A stretch of DNA of 64,000 nt, taken from positions 98,222 to 162,221 of the forward strand of contig JBAQNU010000029.1 in NCBI GenBank assembly GCA_049304095.1, in the 5' to 3' direction. Shown here one piece after another: positions 4,670 to 38,330 of the stretch; within the stretch, counting starts at the first letter, position 1; each line of letters starts with the position of its first letter. Position numbers and translations under genes: made by a program. The notes beneath the pieces are model-generated. The model was not told the origin of the DNA. It did not search any database and was given only the letters and a program-made list of their open reading frames with translations. This stretch comes from Candidatus Moraniibacteriota bacterium (GTDB lineage Bacteria; Patescibacteriota; Minisyncoccia; Moranbacterales; UBA2206).

Positions 4670-4746
4670 TGGTGGGACCAGCTGGATTCGAACCAGCGAC
4701 CAAGAAATTATGAGTTTCCTGCTCTAAACCGCTGAGCTATGGTCCC
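4670..4746 (-). tRNA. tRNA-Met/Ile2 (anticodon CAT), CCA encoded
   Basis: Cloverleaf read from sequence: GGGACCATAGCTCAGCGG...CTCATAA...GGTTCGAATCC...CCA. Confidence 0.8.
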
Positions 4747-33627: not shown

Positions 33628-33950
33628 GCCGAGTTAGCTCAGTGGTAGAGCAGAGGACTGATTTTCGGTCCGCTCTGAAGTAATTCAGAGATGAGAATTG
33701 GATGAATTCGAGGAAGCCTAAAACTAATTTTATTAGAAATGGTAATCTCGAGCTAAGCTTCAAAGGGCGTAAGGTTTTGAAGAAAGTGTAGAGACTAGCA
33801 AGTGAGTCCCAACAATAATCTTGCATTAGCGTCCGATATCCTATTTTGCTAAGTAGCAAAAGGATAATGAAATAGTCCGATCCTTGGGGAAACTCAAGAA
33901 AAATGAGTAGGAAAATCCTTGTGTCCCCGGTTCAATCCCGGGACTCGGCA
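33628..33950 (+). tRNA. tRNA-Phe (GAA) interrupted by a ~251-nt intron between positions 33 and 34
   Basis: Exons GCCGAGTTAGCTCAGTGGTAGAGCAGAGGACT / GAAAATCCTTGTGTCCCCGGTTCAATCCCGGGACTCGGCA closely match a canonical bacterial tRNA-Phe. Confidence 0.7.
33660..33910 (+). other. putative group I self-splicing intron in the tRNA-Phe anticodon loop
   Basis: 5-prime exon ends in U paired with a G of the internal guide GGUCC (P1 GGACU/GGUCC). Intron ends in G. R-like AGAGACUAGC and S-like AAUAGUCCG elements. No ORF. Confidence 0.55.
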
Positions 33951-33954
33951 CGGA

Positions 33955-34010: not shown

Positions 34011-34694
34011 ATGAGAAAAGATAAAGTCAAAGCGCTAGCGCTTAGAAAAAAAGGTTTTAGCTATAATGAAATTAGCAAAAAACTAGAAGTTCCTAAAAGC
34101 ACGCTAAGTTATTGGTTGGCAGATGTAGTAATTTCACAAAAAGCGAAAAACAGAATTGCAAGTAGGGTTTTTGCAGGAAGTGTGAAGGGGCTGATTGAGA
34201 GAAATAAAAATCAAACGGCACTAGCGAAAGAAAGAGCAAAAGCTATTCGAGAAATTGCAAAGAAAGAAGTTAGAAATTTAATGAAAAACAAATTATTTTT
34301 GGTGGGCATTTCCCTGTATTGGGCGGAGGGATATAAAAAGGGTGCTTATGGAAGTAAATGGAAAGCAGTGGATTTTGCCAATTCCGATCCTGAGTTAGTG
34401 AAAATAATGATGAATTTTTTCAGAAAAGTTTGCAGAGTAGAAAGTGAAAAGATAAAAGTTCAGCTAATTGCTCATAAAAATATTGATATGGACGAAGCGG
34501 TGAGCTATTGGTCTGGGCTTATGAAATTATCGAAAAGTCAGTTCATGAAAACAAGTTGTGCGGTGAGTAGCGCGAGCAAAGGCAAGAGAAACAAAAACAG
34601 TTTGACGCACGGAACAGTTCATATTAGGATAAATGATGTAAGGCTATTTTTTCGGATTATTGGCTGGATCGATGGATTGAAGTTGTATATATAG
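34011..34694 (+). CDS. HTH-containing protein with a single LAGLIDADG-like motif (LFLVGISLYWAEGY); candidate free-standing homing endonuclease
   Basis: N-terminal HTH (GFSYNEISKKLEVPKSTLSYWL). Motif resembles the LAGLIDADG core. Position next to the intron-containing tRNA. Confidence 0.35.
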   Translation: MRKDKVKALALRKKGFSYNEISKKLEVPKSTLSYWLADVVISQKAKNRIASRVFAGSVKGLIERNKNQTALAKERAKAIREIAKKEVRNLMKNKLFLVGISLYWAEGYKKGAYGSKWKAVDFANSDPELVKIMMNFFRKVCRVESEKIKVQLIAHKNIDMDEAVSYWSGLMKLSKSQFMKTSCAVSSASKGKRNKNSLTHGTVHIRINDVRLFFRIIGWIDGLKLYI

Positions 34695-34742: not shown

Positions 34743-34814
34743 GCGGGTATCGTATAGTGGCTAATATACGTCCTTGCCAAGGACGAGCGACGGGTTCGAT
34801 TCCCGTTACCCGCT
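34743..34814 (+). tRNA. tRNA-Gly (GCC), discriminator U
   Basis: GCGGGTATCGTATAGTGGCTAATATACGTCCTTGCCAAGGACG...GGTTCGATTCC. D-stem has a G10-U25 wobble. Confidence 0.7.
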
Positions 34815-34953
34815 CAAGATGGCAGAAGCGACTCTTTTTTGGGTCGTTTTTGCTTTAGATAAGTCAAAAGTATCCAGTTCGAGAAAAGTCGAGGACGGTC
34901 CTCGATTTTTTATACTGCTTTACGCTAGATTTATGCTATAATTGACCAAATAT

Positions 34954-35568
34954 ATGAAAATACTGATAGCAACCCATAATCAATCAAAGTTCAAGAGATA
35001 TAAAAAAATCTTAGAAGCTATCGATTTTATCGAGCCAGTGTCATTGGCTGATTTGGGTATTACTGAAAAAGTTGAAGAAAATTATTTAACAAATGTTGAA
35101 AATGCCTTGTTTAAAGCTAGAAGTTATGGAAAAATGTCTGGCCTTATAACTGTGGCAGTGGATGAGGCTTTGATGACAAATTTCTTGCCAGACAATGAAC
35201 AGCCAGGCGTTTATGCCAGAAGATTTGCCAAAGACAAGAAAGAATTAACCGATGTTGAGCTGATTGATGTTTGGAAAGAAATATTTAAACTATACCCACA
35301 AGAGGACAAACAATTTATTTGGAATTTTGCAGTGGCCTATTTTAATCCACGCAATAATTCGGAAGGCGTAGAATGCATTGAAGGAATATCGCATATTGCA
35401 AAATACTTTTCTGCTCTCAAGACAAGTGGTTATCCGATGTCGACATTGTTATCTTCAGCAAAAGACGGAAGGCCGTATATTGAAATGAGCCAAGATGAAA
35501 AATATAAAAAAGACAAGATTAATTTCAAACACTTCATCAGAATATTTAAGGAATGGTTAGAAAAATAA
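34954..35568 (+). CDS. rdgB: non-canonical purine NTP pyrophosphatase (Ham1/RdgB family)
   Basis: KILIATHNQSKFKRYKKIL, YLTNVENALFKAR and PGVYARRFA align with the RdgB motifs. Stop is 4 nt before the RT start. Confidence 0.65.
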   Translation: MKILIATHNQSKFKRYKKILEAIDFIEPVSLADLGITEKVEENYLTNVENALFKARSYGKMSGLITVAVDEALMTNFLPDNEQPGVYARRFAKDKKELTDVELIDVWKEIFKLYPQEDKQFIWNFAVAYFNPRNNSEGVECIEGISHIAKYFSALKTSGYPMSTLLSSAKDGRPYIEMSQDEKYKKDKINFKHFIRIFKEWLEK

Positions 35569-35572
35569 ATAT

Positions 35573-37072
35573 ATGGCAAAAAATGTATTAAATTTAAATC
35601 AAAAAAGTGCAAAAAAATTCTTTCTTAGTCAAGAATGTTATTTGAACATCGAATTGCCGCCATATTTTAAGTTTGATGAGTTGCTTGCAGAAGTTGACAA
35701 CGAATCAAATTCGTTGATATTAAGCGAAAAAGATTTAAAGAAAGCGAAGAAAAATGAAACAATAAATCATATTTTATATGGCAACAAGGATGGTAAATAT
35801 GCTTGGAGAAAATATGAAATTATAAACCCACTGATGTATGTATCGCTGGTAAACGTTATTACAGAAAAGGATAATTGGGATTTTTTAAAAAATAGATTTA
35901 ATGAATTTCAAAAAGATAGCAATATAGAATGCGAAAGCATCCCAGTTTTAGCTGGCACTAAATCAAAACAAAGAGCATCTCAGATTTTACGCTGGGTCAA
36001 TAGAATTGAAAAAAGGTCACTTGCACTAGCGTTGGAATATAAGTATTTATATCAAACAGATATTTCTGATTGTTATGGTTCTATATATTCTCATTCATTG
36101 CCTTGGGCCATACATACCAAAGAAACATCGAAAAATAATAGGGGCTTCAATGGTTTGTTTGGAAATAAGATTGACCAGCACATACAAGCTATGTCTTATG
36201 GAGAAACAAATGGCATACCGCAAGGGAGCACTTTAATGGACTTTATAGCAGAAATTGTTCTTGGTTATGCGGATATGCAATTGTCAGATAAATTAAAAAA
36301 AGAATTAAGGGAAAAGAAGTTTCATATTTTGAGATATAGAGATGATTATAGAATTTTTGTAAACGATGTTGCTGACGGGGACATTATTTTAAAGTGCTTG
36401 AGTGAAGTTTTATTAAACTTAGGATTCAGATTGAATGCCAATAAAACATCCTTTAGTGATGATGTTATTGGCGGGTCAATAAAAAAAGATAAAATTGACG
36501 AATTACGAATAGAGGAAACACCGAAAAAGTTATCCAAAAAGGGACTACTTAGACAATTGCTTATAATTCAACAACTGGGTAAGCAATTTCCTAATTCTGG
36601 AACAGTAGTTAGGCGACTCTCTCACATTTTGGATAATGTTAAACCAAAGGATTTTTATTTGCAAGAGAAAATAATAGTAAGTGTGCTTGCTGATATAGCC
36701 TATAACAACCCAAACTCCTTTCCTCTTGTGGCTGGTTTAGTTTCAAGCTGTATCGCCAAGGTATCAAAAAAAGAGAAAGGGGAGCTGTTAATTTCAATAC
36801 AAAAAAAGGTTTGCTTGCTTCCAAATGCTGGCCTTTTGGAAATATGGACGCAAAGGATAGCTCTTGGAATAAAACTTAAATTGGAATTAAATGAAAAACT
36901 TTGTTGTTGTGTTTACGACTCAAATTTTAAGATATTCGAAACGAATTGGATAGAATATCCCAGAATTAAGGCTATTATAGACGACGGTTCTTATGTTGAT
37001 ATGGATAAAATAGAGAAACTTAAGCCGATAATAAGCAATAAAGAAGTCCAAATATTTACTTATGGCGGTTAA
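35573..37072 (+). CDS. reverse transcriptase, defence-associated/Abi-UG type (RT domain plus alpha-helical C-terminal extension)
   Basis: RT motif A DISDCYGSIY, motif B-prime GIPQGSTLMDFIAEIVL, motif C RYRDDYRIF and a downstream NANKTSF. No retron VTG. No DGR SQ motif. Confidence 0.75.
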   Translation: MAKNVLNLNQKSAKKFFLSQECYLNIELPPYFKFDELLAEVDNESNSLILSEKDLKKAKKNETINHILYGNKDGKYAWRKYEIINPLMYVSLVNVITEKDNWDFLKNRFNEFQKDSNIECESIPVLAGTKSKQRASQILRWVNRIEKRSLALALEYKYLYQTDISDCYGSIYSHSLPWAIHTKETSKNNRGFNGLFGNKIDQHIQAMSYGETNGIPQGSTLMDFIAEIVLGYADMQLSDKLKKELREKKFHILRYRDDYRIFVNDVADGDIILKCLSEVLLNLGFRLNANKTSFSDDVIGGSIKKDKIDELRIEETPKKLSKKGLLRQLLIIQQLGKQFPNSGTVVRRLSHILDNVKPKDFYLQEKIIVSVLADIAYNNPNSFPLVAGLVSSCIAKVSKKEKGELLISIQKKVCLLPNAGLLEIWTQRIALGIKLKLELNEKLCCCVYDSNFKIFETNWIEYPRIKAIIDDGSYVDMDKIEKLKPIISNKEVQIFTYGG

Positions 37073-37135
37073 TTTCAGATAAATCCTTTGTTCATAAGCC
37101 CAGTTCTAACCGTATTAACTAAGTAGCTCAGATAA

Positions 37136-37172
37136 AACAAAAATCTCCATCAATGGAGATTTTTGTTTTTTT
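37136..37172 (+). terminator. rho-independent terminator (AAATCTCCAT-CAA-TGGAGATTT TTGTTTTTTT)
   Basis: Read directly after the RT gene. Confidence 0.65.
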
Positions 37173-37346
37173 GCGGTAGTTTTTCGAAATGGAGATGGTC
37201 TTATTCAAAAAAATGCTTTTCCGTTGGCATGTTAATTCGGCCTAGGACCGTCTTCGATTTTTTGACTAAAGTTGACTTTTCTACATATCAATCCCATTTC
37301 CACAAGTGTATTATAAAAAATTAGCTCCCAATGTTATAATTGAATT

Positions 37347-38087
37347 ATGAATATGGCAATAAATTGTGGCTTTGAGGATAAGGGAGAAACAACCTGGTTT
37401 TTTCGACTAAGTCATAATGAGAAACGTGAATTATTTTTTTGGATACTGTGGGATAAAATAAAACCCTCTTATTTTTTTGATGGGCTAGATAATAGCGAGC
37501 AGGATATAAAAAATATCGATCATATCTCATTCCATAAGGACGGAACAATTCATATTCGATTTTATGATCAGTCGAGTAATGCTGAAAAGATTATTCATAC
37601 AAAACTCGTGAATACTATCCTAGGAATGGAACAAGATAAATATGGACCTCTTTTGACAATATCCATCTATGACTCAAATCTATTTAAAAAATTTATTGGA
37701 AAAGATAATCCAGTGGTTTTTAATAAATTTCAGCATACTCAATTGAAATGGGATATTGAGGGAATTGAAAAATTCAGCCTTGTGTTCTTTTTGGTTGGTG
37801 GACATATAAATCACAGATTGATGTTGGAGAAAAATTTCCCCGGTATGTTTAATATGGGTGCCTCCCCGTATTTAATGAACTTCTTTGGAGATGATAGCAA
37901 GCTTGAGATGGAAAATGGAGAAGTTAGAAAAGTTAATGATCTAGGGTTATTGGTGGCGTTTACAACAAAAACCATTCCGCGACCTCCCAAAGAAGCTATA
38001 ACCGGCACAAGGAAGTTTGATTGGATTGAAATTCCATTAGGCATAAATATAACTCCCTCTGATGAAAAAATAAGGAGAATGACTTAA
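37347..38087 (+). CDS. hypothetical protein, third gene of the AT-rich RT island
   Basis: ORF only. AT-rich. Confidence 0.4.
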   Translation: MNMAINCGFEDKGETTWFFRLSHNEKRELFFWILWDKIKPSYFFDGLDNSEQDIKNIDHISFHKDGTIHIRFYDQSSNAEKIIHTKLVNTILGMEQDKYGPLLTISIYDSNLFKKFIGKDNPVVFNKFQHTQLKWDIEGIEKFSLVFFLVGGHINHRLMLEKNFPGMFNMGASPYLMNFFGDDSKLEMENGEVRKVNDLGLLVAFTTKTIPRPPKEAITGTRKFDWIEIPLGINITPSDEKIRRMT

Positions 38088-38330
38088 TTTATTTGTTGCT
38101 TATGCCTATTTTCCGTATTTCTTTGTCTAAATTACAACAAATAAAGGTTAAATTGTATTTTTCCTTAATTAGTTCGTGGTAAGAATTCACCGCTCTTAAA
38201 AAACAAAAAGTTCTTCCTTGTGGAGAGTTTTTTGTTTGCTAGAATATATTCCAAACTTTGACCTTCTATCTATTTATGCTATGGTGGAAGGGCAACGGGG
38301 GTAAATATCTCCAATTTAAGAAGCTAATGG

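Follow-up and report, generated by a model that had tools for sequence, protein, structure and literature searches.

The polymerase Abi-P2 of E. coli P2-like prophages, whose founding member is encoded by P2-EC30 and whose crystal structure is available (PDB code 7R08), polymerises DNA in a template-free manner (PMC9508834). Its priming residue, Tyr61, was identified with a Y61F mutant (PMC9508834). According to the literature, AbiP2 enzymes belong to class 1 of UG/Abi, stand alone and pass readily from one mobile element to another (PMC9226505), and E. coli Abi-P2 is active without a Cas4-like PD-(D/E)XK partner (PMC8632793, PMC9226505). AbiK from Lactococcus and DRT4/UG15 are other class 1 template-independent, protein-primed polymerases.

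The window, that is the whole stretch of 64,000 nucleotides analysed here, carries a reverse transcriptase (RT) gene between a Ham1/RdgB-family gene (Ham1) and an orphan gene (ORF3); the coordinates and forward orientation of all three were confirmed (Table 1). The initial annotation regarded them as a defence island behind tRNA-Gly, in which a nucleotide-pool pyrophosphatase was coupled to the RT and ORF3 might be the effector. In our opinion, the RT is very probably a single-gene AbiP2-type abortive-infection polymerase which was horizontally acquired and inserted behind a resident Ham1, Ham1 and ORF3 being unrelated to it.

Table 1. Features of the region around the RT gene (positions refer to the window).
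Feature	Position	Strand	Basis
tRNA-Gly(GCC)	34743..34815	+	ARAGORN, Rfam
Palindromic hairpin CGAGGAC-G-GTCCTCG (perfect), then TTTTTT; 20-bp repeat copy 1	34889..34911	+	sequence, terminator scan, pattern search
Extended -10-like promoter element TGCTATAAT	34934..34942	+	direct reading; 11 nt 5' of Ham1 ATG
Ham1/RdgB-family gene, divergent, 204 aa	34954..35568	+	Pfam, 1K7K, synteny
RT gene, assigned to AbiP2-family (class 1 UG/Abi) polymerases, 499 aa	35573..37072	+	PADLOC, PDB 7R08, P2-EC30 comparison, conservation
Conserved 38-nt segment	37093..37130	+	matches sequence 3' of DUF3800 cargo, L086/L087
Predicted intrinsic terminator, perfect 17-bp inverted repeat, then T-run	37134..37172	+	repeat search, MFE fold
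20-bp repeat copy 2, imperfect hairpin	37244..37263	+	directly left of ORF3 module
ORF3 module: promoter-like TGTTATAAT (37332-37340), ORF3 CDS, 3' tail	37309..38203	+	
ORF3, 246 aa, orphan, beta-rich	37347..38087	+	

Profile searches bore out the earlier view of the RT as a defence-type Abi/UG enzyme. The PADLOC model AbiP2 (PDLC03744) matched residues 2–497 over profile positions 4–485 of 489 with 589 bits (E 1.5e-177), far above the second-best model UG14 (182 bits), and the structure 7R08 was matched from residue 2 to 495 (32–540 of 7R08), helical domain included, with an E-value of 2.2e-77. The RT of P2-EC30 showed 34% identity at 99% coverage, and further matches were obtained with phrog_12132 (E 2e-82) and Pfam RVT_1 (45.5 bits, cutoff 29.6). 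On these grounds, the RT is classified as a full-length member of the already described AbiP2 family. It was likewise correctly distinguished from retron, DGR and group II intron RTs, as the NCBIfam group II RT model scored 42.6 bits (cutoff 300) and Rfam revealed no retron, DGR or group II RNA at the gathering threshold or E ≤ 1.

The RT motifs reported previously were located in the translated ORF at residues 163 (DISDC), 217 (QGS), 255 (YRDD) and 288 (NANKT); the protein consists of RT-like palm and fingers followed by a C-terminal helical (alpha-repeat) domain. Asp163 of motif A and Asp257 and Asp258 of motif C (Y255-R-D257-D258) are invariant across 26 homologues and are predicted to be the catalytic residues. 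Tyr31, kept in at least 90% of these homologues, is located in the sequence ELPPY and aligns with Tyr61 (ELPAY) of the 7R08 chain, which makes it the predicted priming residue. The Tyr61 of PMC9508834 presumably refers to chain numbering, because residue 46 of the chain is also a tyrosine. [quoted passage not shown] Polymerase activity, oligomeric state (trimeric assembly in AbiP2) and phage defence are thereby extrapolated from a homologue with 34% identity. Such a mechanism would need neither an ncRNA nor a partner gene.

The spacing of 4 nt (ATAT) that separates the RT start codon ATG from the Ham1 stop, on which the initial annotation had relied, is correct. As the sequence between both genes contains neither a promoter nor a terminator, transcripts that begin at the Ham1 promoter probably continue into the RT gene. 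We infer that the transcript starts at the extended -10-like element upstream of Ham1, which was passed over by a consensus promoter scan because a -35 element is absent. The 17-bp inverted repeat downstream of the RT is interpreted as the intrinsic terminator that closes the Ham1-RT unit, and the hairpin upstream of Ham1, matched by the terminator scan at 34905–34889, probably terminates transcripts of the tRNA cluster. An ncRNA template, for which the gap between RT and ORF3 (37073–37346) had been suggested as host, was searched for and rejected: in this gap and in 34815–34953, Rfam yielded no family beyond tRNA at the gathering threshold or E ≤ 1, and the fold z-score of -3.15 for the gap can be put down to the terminator hairpin of 17 bp, which dominates the MFE fold there. 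Such an RNA is also not expected, because Abi-P2 polymerises DNA template-free (PMC9508834).

The assignment of Ham1 to the Ham1/RdgB family is supported by Pfam Ham1p_like (53.8 bits, cutoff 22.5; 3e-14) and by the structure of E. coli RdgB (PDB code 1K7K; E 9e-10, catalytic Asp aligned), while all NCBIfam RdgB equivalog cutoffs were missed (55 vs 234 bits and 50 vs 145 bits). The order tRNA-Gly(GCC)-Ham1 is kept in four related Moraniibacteriota/Parcubacteria lineages, none of which carries an RT; it was found at L086/L087, L088 and L108. A wider order comprising L19, the tRNA cluster, Ham1, a 3D-domain gene, tRNA-Cys, tRNA-Leu and UDG is kept at three loci from two lineages. At L086/L087 and L088, tRNA-Leu(gag), Val(tac), Phe(gaa), Met(cat) and Gly(gcc) precede Ham1 and a variable gene, after which the 3D-domain gene, tRNA-Cys, tRNA-Leu(taa) and UDG follow, without an RT. 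Relatives devoid of an RT thus preserve Ham1 together with its neighbours, an outcome the initial annotation itself had held to speak against its proposal. Its idea that the three genes together might be an insertion relative to close relatives applies to the RT and ORF3, which are missing from the site, but not to Ham1, which is present. Synteny accordingly identifies Ham1 as a gene already resident at this position and tRNA-Gly(GCC) as its conserved upstream neighbour rather than an attachment site of an island. Ham1 is AT-rich in relatives too (GC content of 0.333 in L086, where the locus has 0.433).

Directly 3' of Ham1, the relatives possess a variable slot which contains a gene for a DUF3800 protein, Vsr, a response regulator or a 164-aa unknown protein, or is empty, and into which the RT would have been inserted as one ORF. 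In the window, L086, L090 and L102, only 4–9 nt separate the end of Ham1 from the start of the cargo. A segment of 38 nt past the RT stop is homologous to 38 nt past the DUF3800 stop in L086, and 35 of its 38 positions, with a core of 24/24, are identical to the sequence after the DUF3800 gene in L086/L087. This segment is taken to mark the right edge of the slot and could be the remnant of a C-terminus. The conserved 24-mer CCAGTTCTAACCGTATTAACTAAG was absent from viral contigs and, even with 5 mismatches, from all other loci. Inverted repeats flanking the insert were considered as a boundary signal and rejected, only a weak 27-nt pair with 74% identity being found. The closest relatives of the RT are scattered over several CPR phyla.

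A side observation concerns the genes adjacent to these relatives, which usually have a Cas4-like PD-(D/E)XK gene downstream, while the window has none. Within the subclade of the RT, 9 distinct loci have a Cas4-like PDDEXK_1 gene that follows the RT at a distance of 10–25 nt (they bear 10 identifiers, as L001 and L017 are one contig), and the more distant L018 also carries it directly downstream. The window RT nests among the PDDEXK_1 loci in a rough neighbour-joining tree without support values. No PDDEXK homologue was found in the window, and a tblastn search for a relic downstream of the RT was empty. Because the subclade loci carry this gene and the window RT is nested among them, the solo RT may be an incomplete system, i.e. 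the stranded half of an ancestral module of AbiP2-like RT and Cas4-like nuclease whose defence function was lost or altered. We consider this unlikely, as the ORF is full length with all catalytic and priming residues intact, E. coli Abi-P2 is active with no nuclease at its side (PMC8632793, PMC9226505), and the nuclease is absent also from the clade members L002, L004, L013 and L015.

A second explanation retains the resident Ham1 and the inserted AbiP2 gene and adds that their operon-like placement is functional in this lineage, the 3' end of Ham1 being a dedicated slot for defence cassettes. Co-expressed Ham1 would then block the incorporation of dITP/dXTP by the AbiP2 polymerase or control its substrate supply, and promoterless single-gene cassettes (AbiP2, DUF3800, Vsr) would be exchanged, driven by the housekeeping promoter and bounded by the 38-nt element. 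Taken jointly, these assumptions are very unlikely to hold. Ham1 could nevertheless be linked more loosely to defence regions, which would count against the single-gene AbiP2 explanation, because it shares 77% identity with its L087 counterpart whereas flanking core proteins show 45–64% (apart from the last 97 aa of the 3D protein, with 74% against L086), and because two other Ham1 relatives (L090, L106) adjoin restriction-modification genes.

It is extremely unlikely that Ham1 and the RT, with or without ORF3, constitute a new DRT-like system in which the pyrophosphatase would shape or sanitise the nucleotides available to the RT, with ORF3 as effector. The 4-nt gap without a terminator and the AT-richness of both genes fit such a system, and a template-independent polymerase might plausibly be sensitive to non-canonical dNTPs. 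The comparative data, however, largely refute this reading: neither Ham1 nor ORF3 was found within 6 kb of the RT homologue at any of 85 loci, a sample from some 3400 AbiP2 homologues, no RT was present in about 13 distinct related Ham1 loci, and Ham1 holds its position in relatives that have no RT. Equally tight spacing (4–9 nt) behind Ham1 is seen elsewhere for DUF3800, Vsr and the 164-aa ORF. ORF3 is preceded by a strong terminator, is equipped with a separate promoter-like element and is present at L092, L093 and L095 with no RT, which contradicts its proposed role as effector. A DNA copy of the ORF3 module with 96% identity exists at a different place in another genome, again with no RT nearby, and the module has homology boundaries of its own; comparison of the ORF3 fold with known folds gave no match. 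ORF3 is thus best described as a separate, independently mobile single-gene module without an RT partner. Judged by their distribution, Ham1, the RT and ORF3 are three unrelated neighbours and not a new defence system.

Several features from which an island had been deduced are real. ARAGORN confirmed tRNA-Gly(GCC) directly upstream, and 34751..38200 is the GC minimum of the window (0.315–0.34 in 1.5-kb windows; mean 0.406, sd 0.029). The only intron found, a group I intron (33650–33899; Rfam, 75 bits), is located within a split tRNA-Phe 1.7 kb upstream of the RT gene and is followed by an HTH/LAGLIDADG-like ORF (34011..34694). The 20-bp repeat (34892–34911 and 37244–37263) agrees at 18/20 positions, a match found in 0 of 100 shuffles, while a rough pair count predicts about 0.2 such pairs by chance per 3.5 kb of AT-rich DNA; it does not bracket an island, since it encloses the resident Ham1. 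That 34816–38330 was integrated at tRNA-Gly with these repeats as attachment-site scars deserves hardly any credence, for despite the adjoining tRNA, the low GC content and the shuffling result, the segment lacks an integrase or recombinase, the repeat is set off from the tRNA by 77 nt and does not overlap it, copy 1 is a terminator-like palindrome, copy 2 precedes ORF3 and leaves it with its separate boundaries (37309–38203) outside, 27 other short two-copy families with 74–88% identity occur within the same 5.2-kb region, and relatives lack the RT and ORF3 only and not the whole segment.

The single-gene AbiP2 explanation removes a false lead, namely Ham1 plus RT as a new DRT architecture. 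It would mean that protein-primed polymerases of the AbiP2 type are in circulation among the ultra-small bacteria of the CPR, whose genomes accommodate single defence genes right after conserved genes or within restriction-modification operons. The recurrent pairing of AbiP2 with a Cas4-like nuclease in a CPR subclade and the variable cargo slot behind Ham1 are modest but real leads.

Compared to E. coli RdgB, yeast Ham1 and human ITPA (dITP/XTP pyrophosphatase), the window Ham1 bears the signature of the fold family: T-x-N-x-x-K near the N-terminus, EEN..ENA..KA, the catalytic Asp (D69 in E. coli) and PG.Y.RR are aligned, whereas the motifs FGYDP and SHR are unconserved. It belongs to a divergent lineage in which 98 homologues form a smooth identity series from 81% to 41%, those with named source being nearly all from CPR taxa. 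With AbiK and DRT4/UG15, the RT has in common the RT-like core and the helical C-terminal domain, and weak PADLOC matches were obtained (AbiK, E 4e-30; Drt4, E 7e-52). Because these scores of 100–175 bits are far below the 589 bits for AbiP2, the RT is not considered a member of either group. From Abi-P2 it differs by an identity of only about 34%, by its host, Candidatus Moraniibacteriota (CPR) instead of an enterobacterial prophage, by its location behind a chromosomal Ham1 instead of the P2 hypervariable locus, and by the Cas4-like gene often found downstream in its nearest clade, which is undescribed for E. coli Abi-P2. Both proteins are nevertheless co-linear over their full length with palm, fingers and helical C-terminus, they have in common the active-site motif YRDD and, within ELP(A/P)Y, the tyrosine for priming, and both are encoded by single genes in an AT-rich, horizontally acquired variable region (PMC8632793).

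The reverse-transcriptase-like gene (RT) had been taken for a defence-type enzyme within a gene set of new architecture; the first part of this claim was supported, the second was not. The motifs DISDC, QGS, YRDD and NANKT lie where the initial annotation placed them, at residues 163, 217, 255 and 288. PADLOC assigned the protein to AbiP2 (E = 1.5e-177, residues 2-497) with 589 bits as compared to 182 bits for UG14, the second-best model, and the crystal structure of E. coli Abi-P2 (7R08) matched it end to end (E = 2.2e-77). The founding P2-EC30 RT shares 34% identity with it over 99% of the length. Abi-P2 is a trimeric polymerase whose template-independent polymerisation is protein-primed, with Tyr61 as the priming residue (Figiel et al., PMC9508834). 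A HMMER alignment placed Tyr31 of the RT (ELPPY) on Tyr61 of the 7R08 chain (ELPAY), and across 26 aligned homologues there is no variation at D163, D257 and D258, while Y31 is kept in at least 90%. Judged by these profile, structure and alignment matches, the RT is a member of the known AbiP2 family with conserved putative catalytic and priming residues. The gene is probably co-transcribed from the Ham1 promoter, and the protein would oligomerise, synthesise untemplated ssDNA primed at Tyr31 and presumably act in abortive-infection defence.

The Ham1/RdgB-like gene (Ham1), the RT and a downstream 246-aa orphan (ORF3) are present as initially annotated, all on the plus strand, with a 4-nt spacer (ATAT) from the Ham1 stop codon to the ATG of the RT. 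The proposed AT-rich stretch is real as well: 34751-38200, with a GC content of 0.315-0.34, is the lowest of the 64-kb window (mean 0.406, sd 0.029).

Features of the locus and its tRNA cluster (window coordinates)
Feature	Position	Strand	Remark
tRNA-Met(cat)	4670-4746	-	
tRNA-Phe(GAA) 5' exon	~33628-33661		split tRNA, 33628-33951
Group I intron	33650-33899		about 251 nt; Rfam RF00028, 75 bits
tRNA-Phe(GAA) 3' exon	~33913-33951		
227-aa ORF	34011-34694		N-terminal HTH, LAGLIDADG-like 'LFLVGISLYWAEGYKKG' stretch
tRNA-Gly(GCC)	34743..34815		upstream of Ham1
20-bp repeat, copy 1	34892-34911		
-10-like element through ATG, Ham1	34934-34956		
Ham1	34954..35568	+	ORF call
RT	35573..37072	+	ORF call
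38-nt element	37093-37130		L086 2635-2672; L087 7476-7513
Terminator	37134-37172		inverted repeat, perfect 17-bp stem
20-bp repeat, copy 2	37244-37263		
-10-like element through ATG, ORF3	37332-37349		
ORF3	37347..38087	+	ORF call

In 85 loci that carry RT homologues, taken with flanks of at most 6 kb, tblastn detected neither Ham1 nor ORF3 (0/85), which shows that neither is a conserved partner of these RTs. The Ham1 protein exceeds the Pfam Ham1p_like threshold and can be aligned to E. coli RdgB, whose catalytic Asp it shares; it is divergent, scoring far under the NCBIfam equivalog cutoffs. Identity to its 98 homologues falls smoothly from 81% to 41%, and those with a named source stem nearly all from Moraniibacteriota, Parcubacteria or Saccharibacteria. 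The order tRNA-Leu(gag), Val(tac), Phe(gaa), Met(cat), Gly(gcc), Ham1, variable gene, 3D-domain gene, tRNA-Cys, tRNA-Leu(taa), UDG is shared by the window, L086/L087 (Ham1 77% identical) and L088 (complete genome CP064994, 66%), and tRNA-Gly followed by Ham1 recurs in L108; no RT was found in any of these loci. They keep Ham1 among the same neighbours without an RT, an arrangement that the initial annotation had itself named as contradicting its reading, and this speaks strongly against the supposed new pairing of Ham1 with an RT. Relatives likewise have a GC-poor Ham1 (0.333 in L086 vs 0.433 for the locus).

The gene directly 3' of Ham1 varies among relatives: DUF3800 (9-nt gap), Vsr (4-nt gap), a 164-aa unknown protein (4-nt gap), a response regulator, or nothing. 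Because the 38 nt shortly after the RT stop match the 38 nt after the DUF3800 stop in L086/L087 at 35 of 38 positions, the RT ORF alone fills the slot, and the insertion boundaries, as read from this alignment, are the Ham1 stop and the 38-nt segment. Behind both cargo genes, different as these are, the element retains a 24/24 core, CCAGTTCTAACCGTATTAACTAAG; the neighbouring Ham1 coding DNA is just 76% identical. Both copies of the element read ...HK(P/S)SSNRIN* in one frame. The element may represent the remnant of a C-terminus or a functional site, and searches of viral contigs and of the other loci gave no further copy. Ham1 relatives at 75-81% identity occur inside or beside restriction-modification genes: L090 (3845-10450) carries Eco47II endonuclease, Dcm methylase, Ham1, Vsr (4 nt after Ham1) and a Ppl/AAA-like 1045-aa protein, and L106 (356-1141) an MvaI/BcnI-type endonuclease upstream. 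Defence genes seem to be drawn to the surroundings of this Ham1 lineage.

ORF3, suggested as the effector, lies beyond the terminator with its own TGTTATAAT element. A copy in L092, 96% identical at the DNA level across 37309-38203, has HU and RNase Y as neighbours and lies at the margin of an island that bears a recombinase; no RT was found there, nor near two more distant homologues. The family is tiny, with 20 homologues plus 60 representatives among 1.84 billion proteins, and searches yielded neither a domain match nor an informative match of fold. ORF3 is an orphan gene, unrelated and recently moved; its separation by the terminator, its RT-free copies and its absence from the 85 RT loci speak against a partnership. 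An extended -10-like element, TGnTATAATTGA, precedes the ATG of both Ham1 and ORF3 by only 6-11 nt, which points to 5' leaders that are very short or absent.

The 20-bp repeat said to bracket the island exists (18/20 identities; 0 matches in 100 shuffles), but the 5.2-kb region around it contains 28 short two-copy families, this one included. Between tRNA-Gly and the promoter-like TGCTATAAT of Ham1, copy 1 forms a perfect palindrome with a T-run behind it; copy 2, immediately left of the ORF3 module, is an imperfect form of it. Since the pair encloses the ancestral, resident Ham1 and excludes ORF3, it cannot mark the ends of a three-gene insertion, and we took it for a chance match or for a hairpin motif with a regulatory role.

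As AbiP2 is a multi-domain stand-alone class 1 UG/Abi protein, described as highly mobile (Mestre et al., PMC9226505), no ncRNA was expected, and Rfam revealed none beside the RT. The gap 37073-37346, formerly a candidate ncRNA host, owes its apparent structure to the terminator hairpin.

Upstream, the group I intron interrupts the anticodon loop of tRNA-Phe(GAA), which ARAGORN missed; L086 and L088 have the same tRNA without intron. The 227-aa ORF occupies the place of tRNA-Met(cat) in relatives, between tRNA-Phe and tRNA-Gly, and is possibly a free-standing homing endonuclease tied to the nearby intron.

The nearest relatives of the RT, at 61-69% identity, originate from several CPR phyla, with one further contig that was binned as Pacearchaeota. 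Full-length AbiP2-like RTs occur on contigs binned as archaea (L006, L018, L062, L075: Pacearchaeota UBA284, Promethearchaeota, Nitrosopumilaceae, Methanophagales), where MAG binning errors are possible; a 2021 review stated that Abi RTs had not been found in Archaea (PMC8632793). Clustering the neighbours of the 85 RT loci revealed adjacent type I R-M genes (HsdS in 27, HsdM in 23, HsdR in 17). AbiP2-like RTs are embedded in or right behind such operons in 27 loci (L013, L026-L084); HsdS of L013 ends 2 nt before the RT.

In the close RT clade, 8 loci have type III Mod and Res genes upstream, and in 10 (nine distinct, L001 and L017 lying on one contig) the RT is followed after 10-25 nt by a 251-aa PDDEXK_1 (Cas4-like) gene. 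This gene has a C-terminal Cys cluster (L001, L007-L012, L014, L016-L018; e.g. L001 6506-7261). That the window RT is the stranded half of such a two-gene module is a minority possibility: it nests among nuclease-linked RTs in a rough NJ tree and no PDDEXK_1 gene was found in the window, but its active site is intact and E. coli Abi-P2 functions solo. AbiP2 is listed in the literature as a stand-alone protein (PMC9226505); in the CPR subclade nearest to the window RT, the combination of an AbiP2-like RT with PDDEXK_1 is recurrent.
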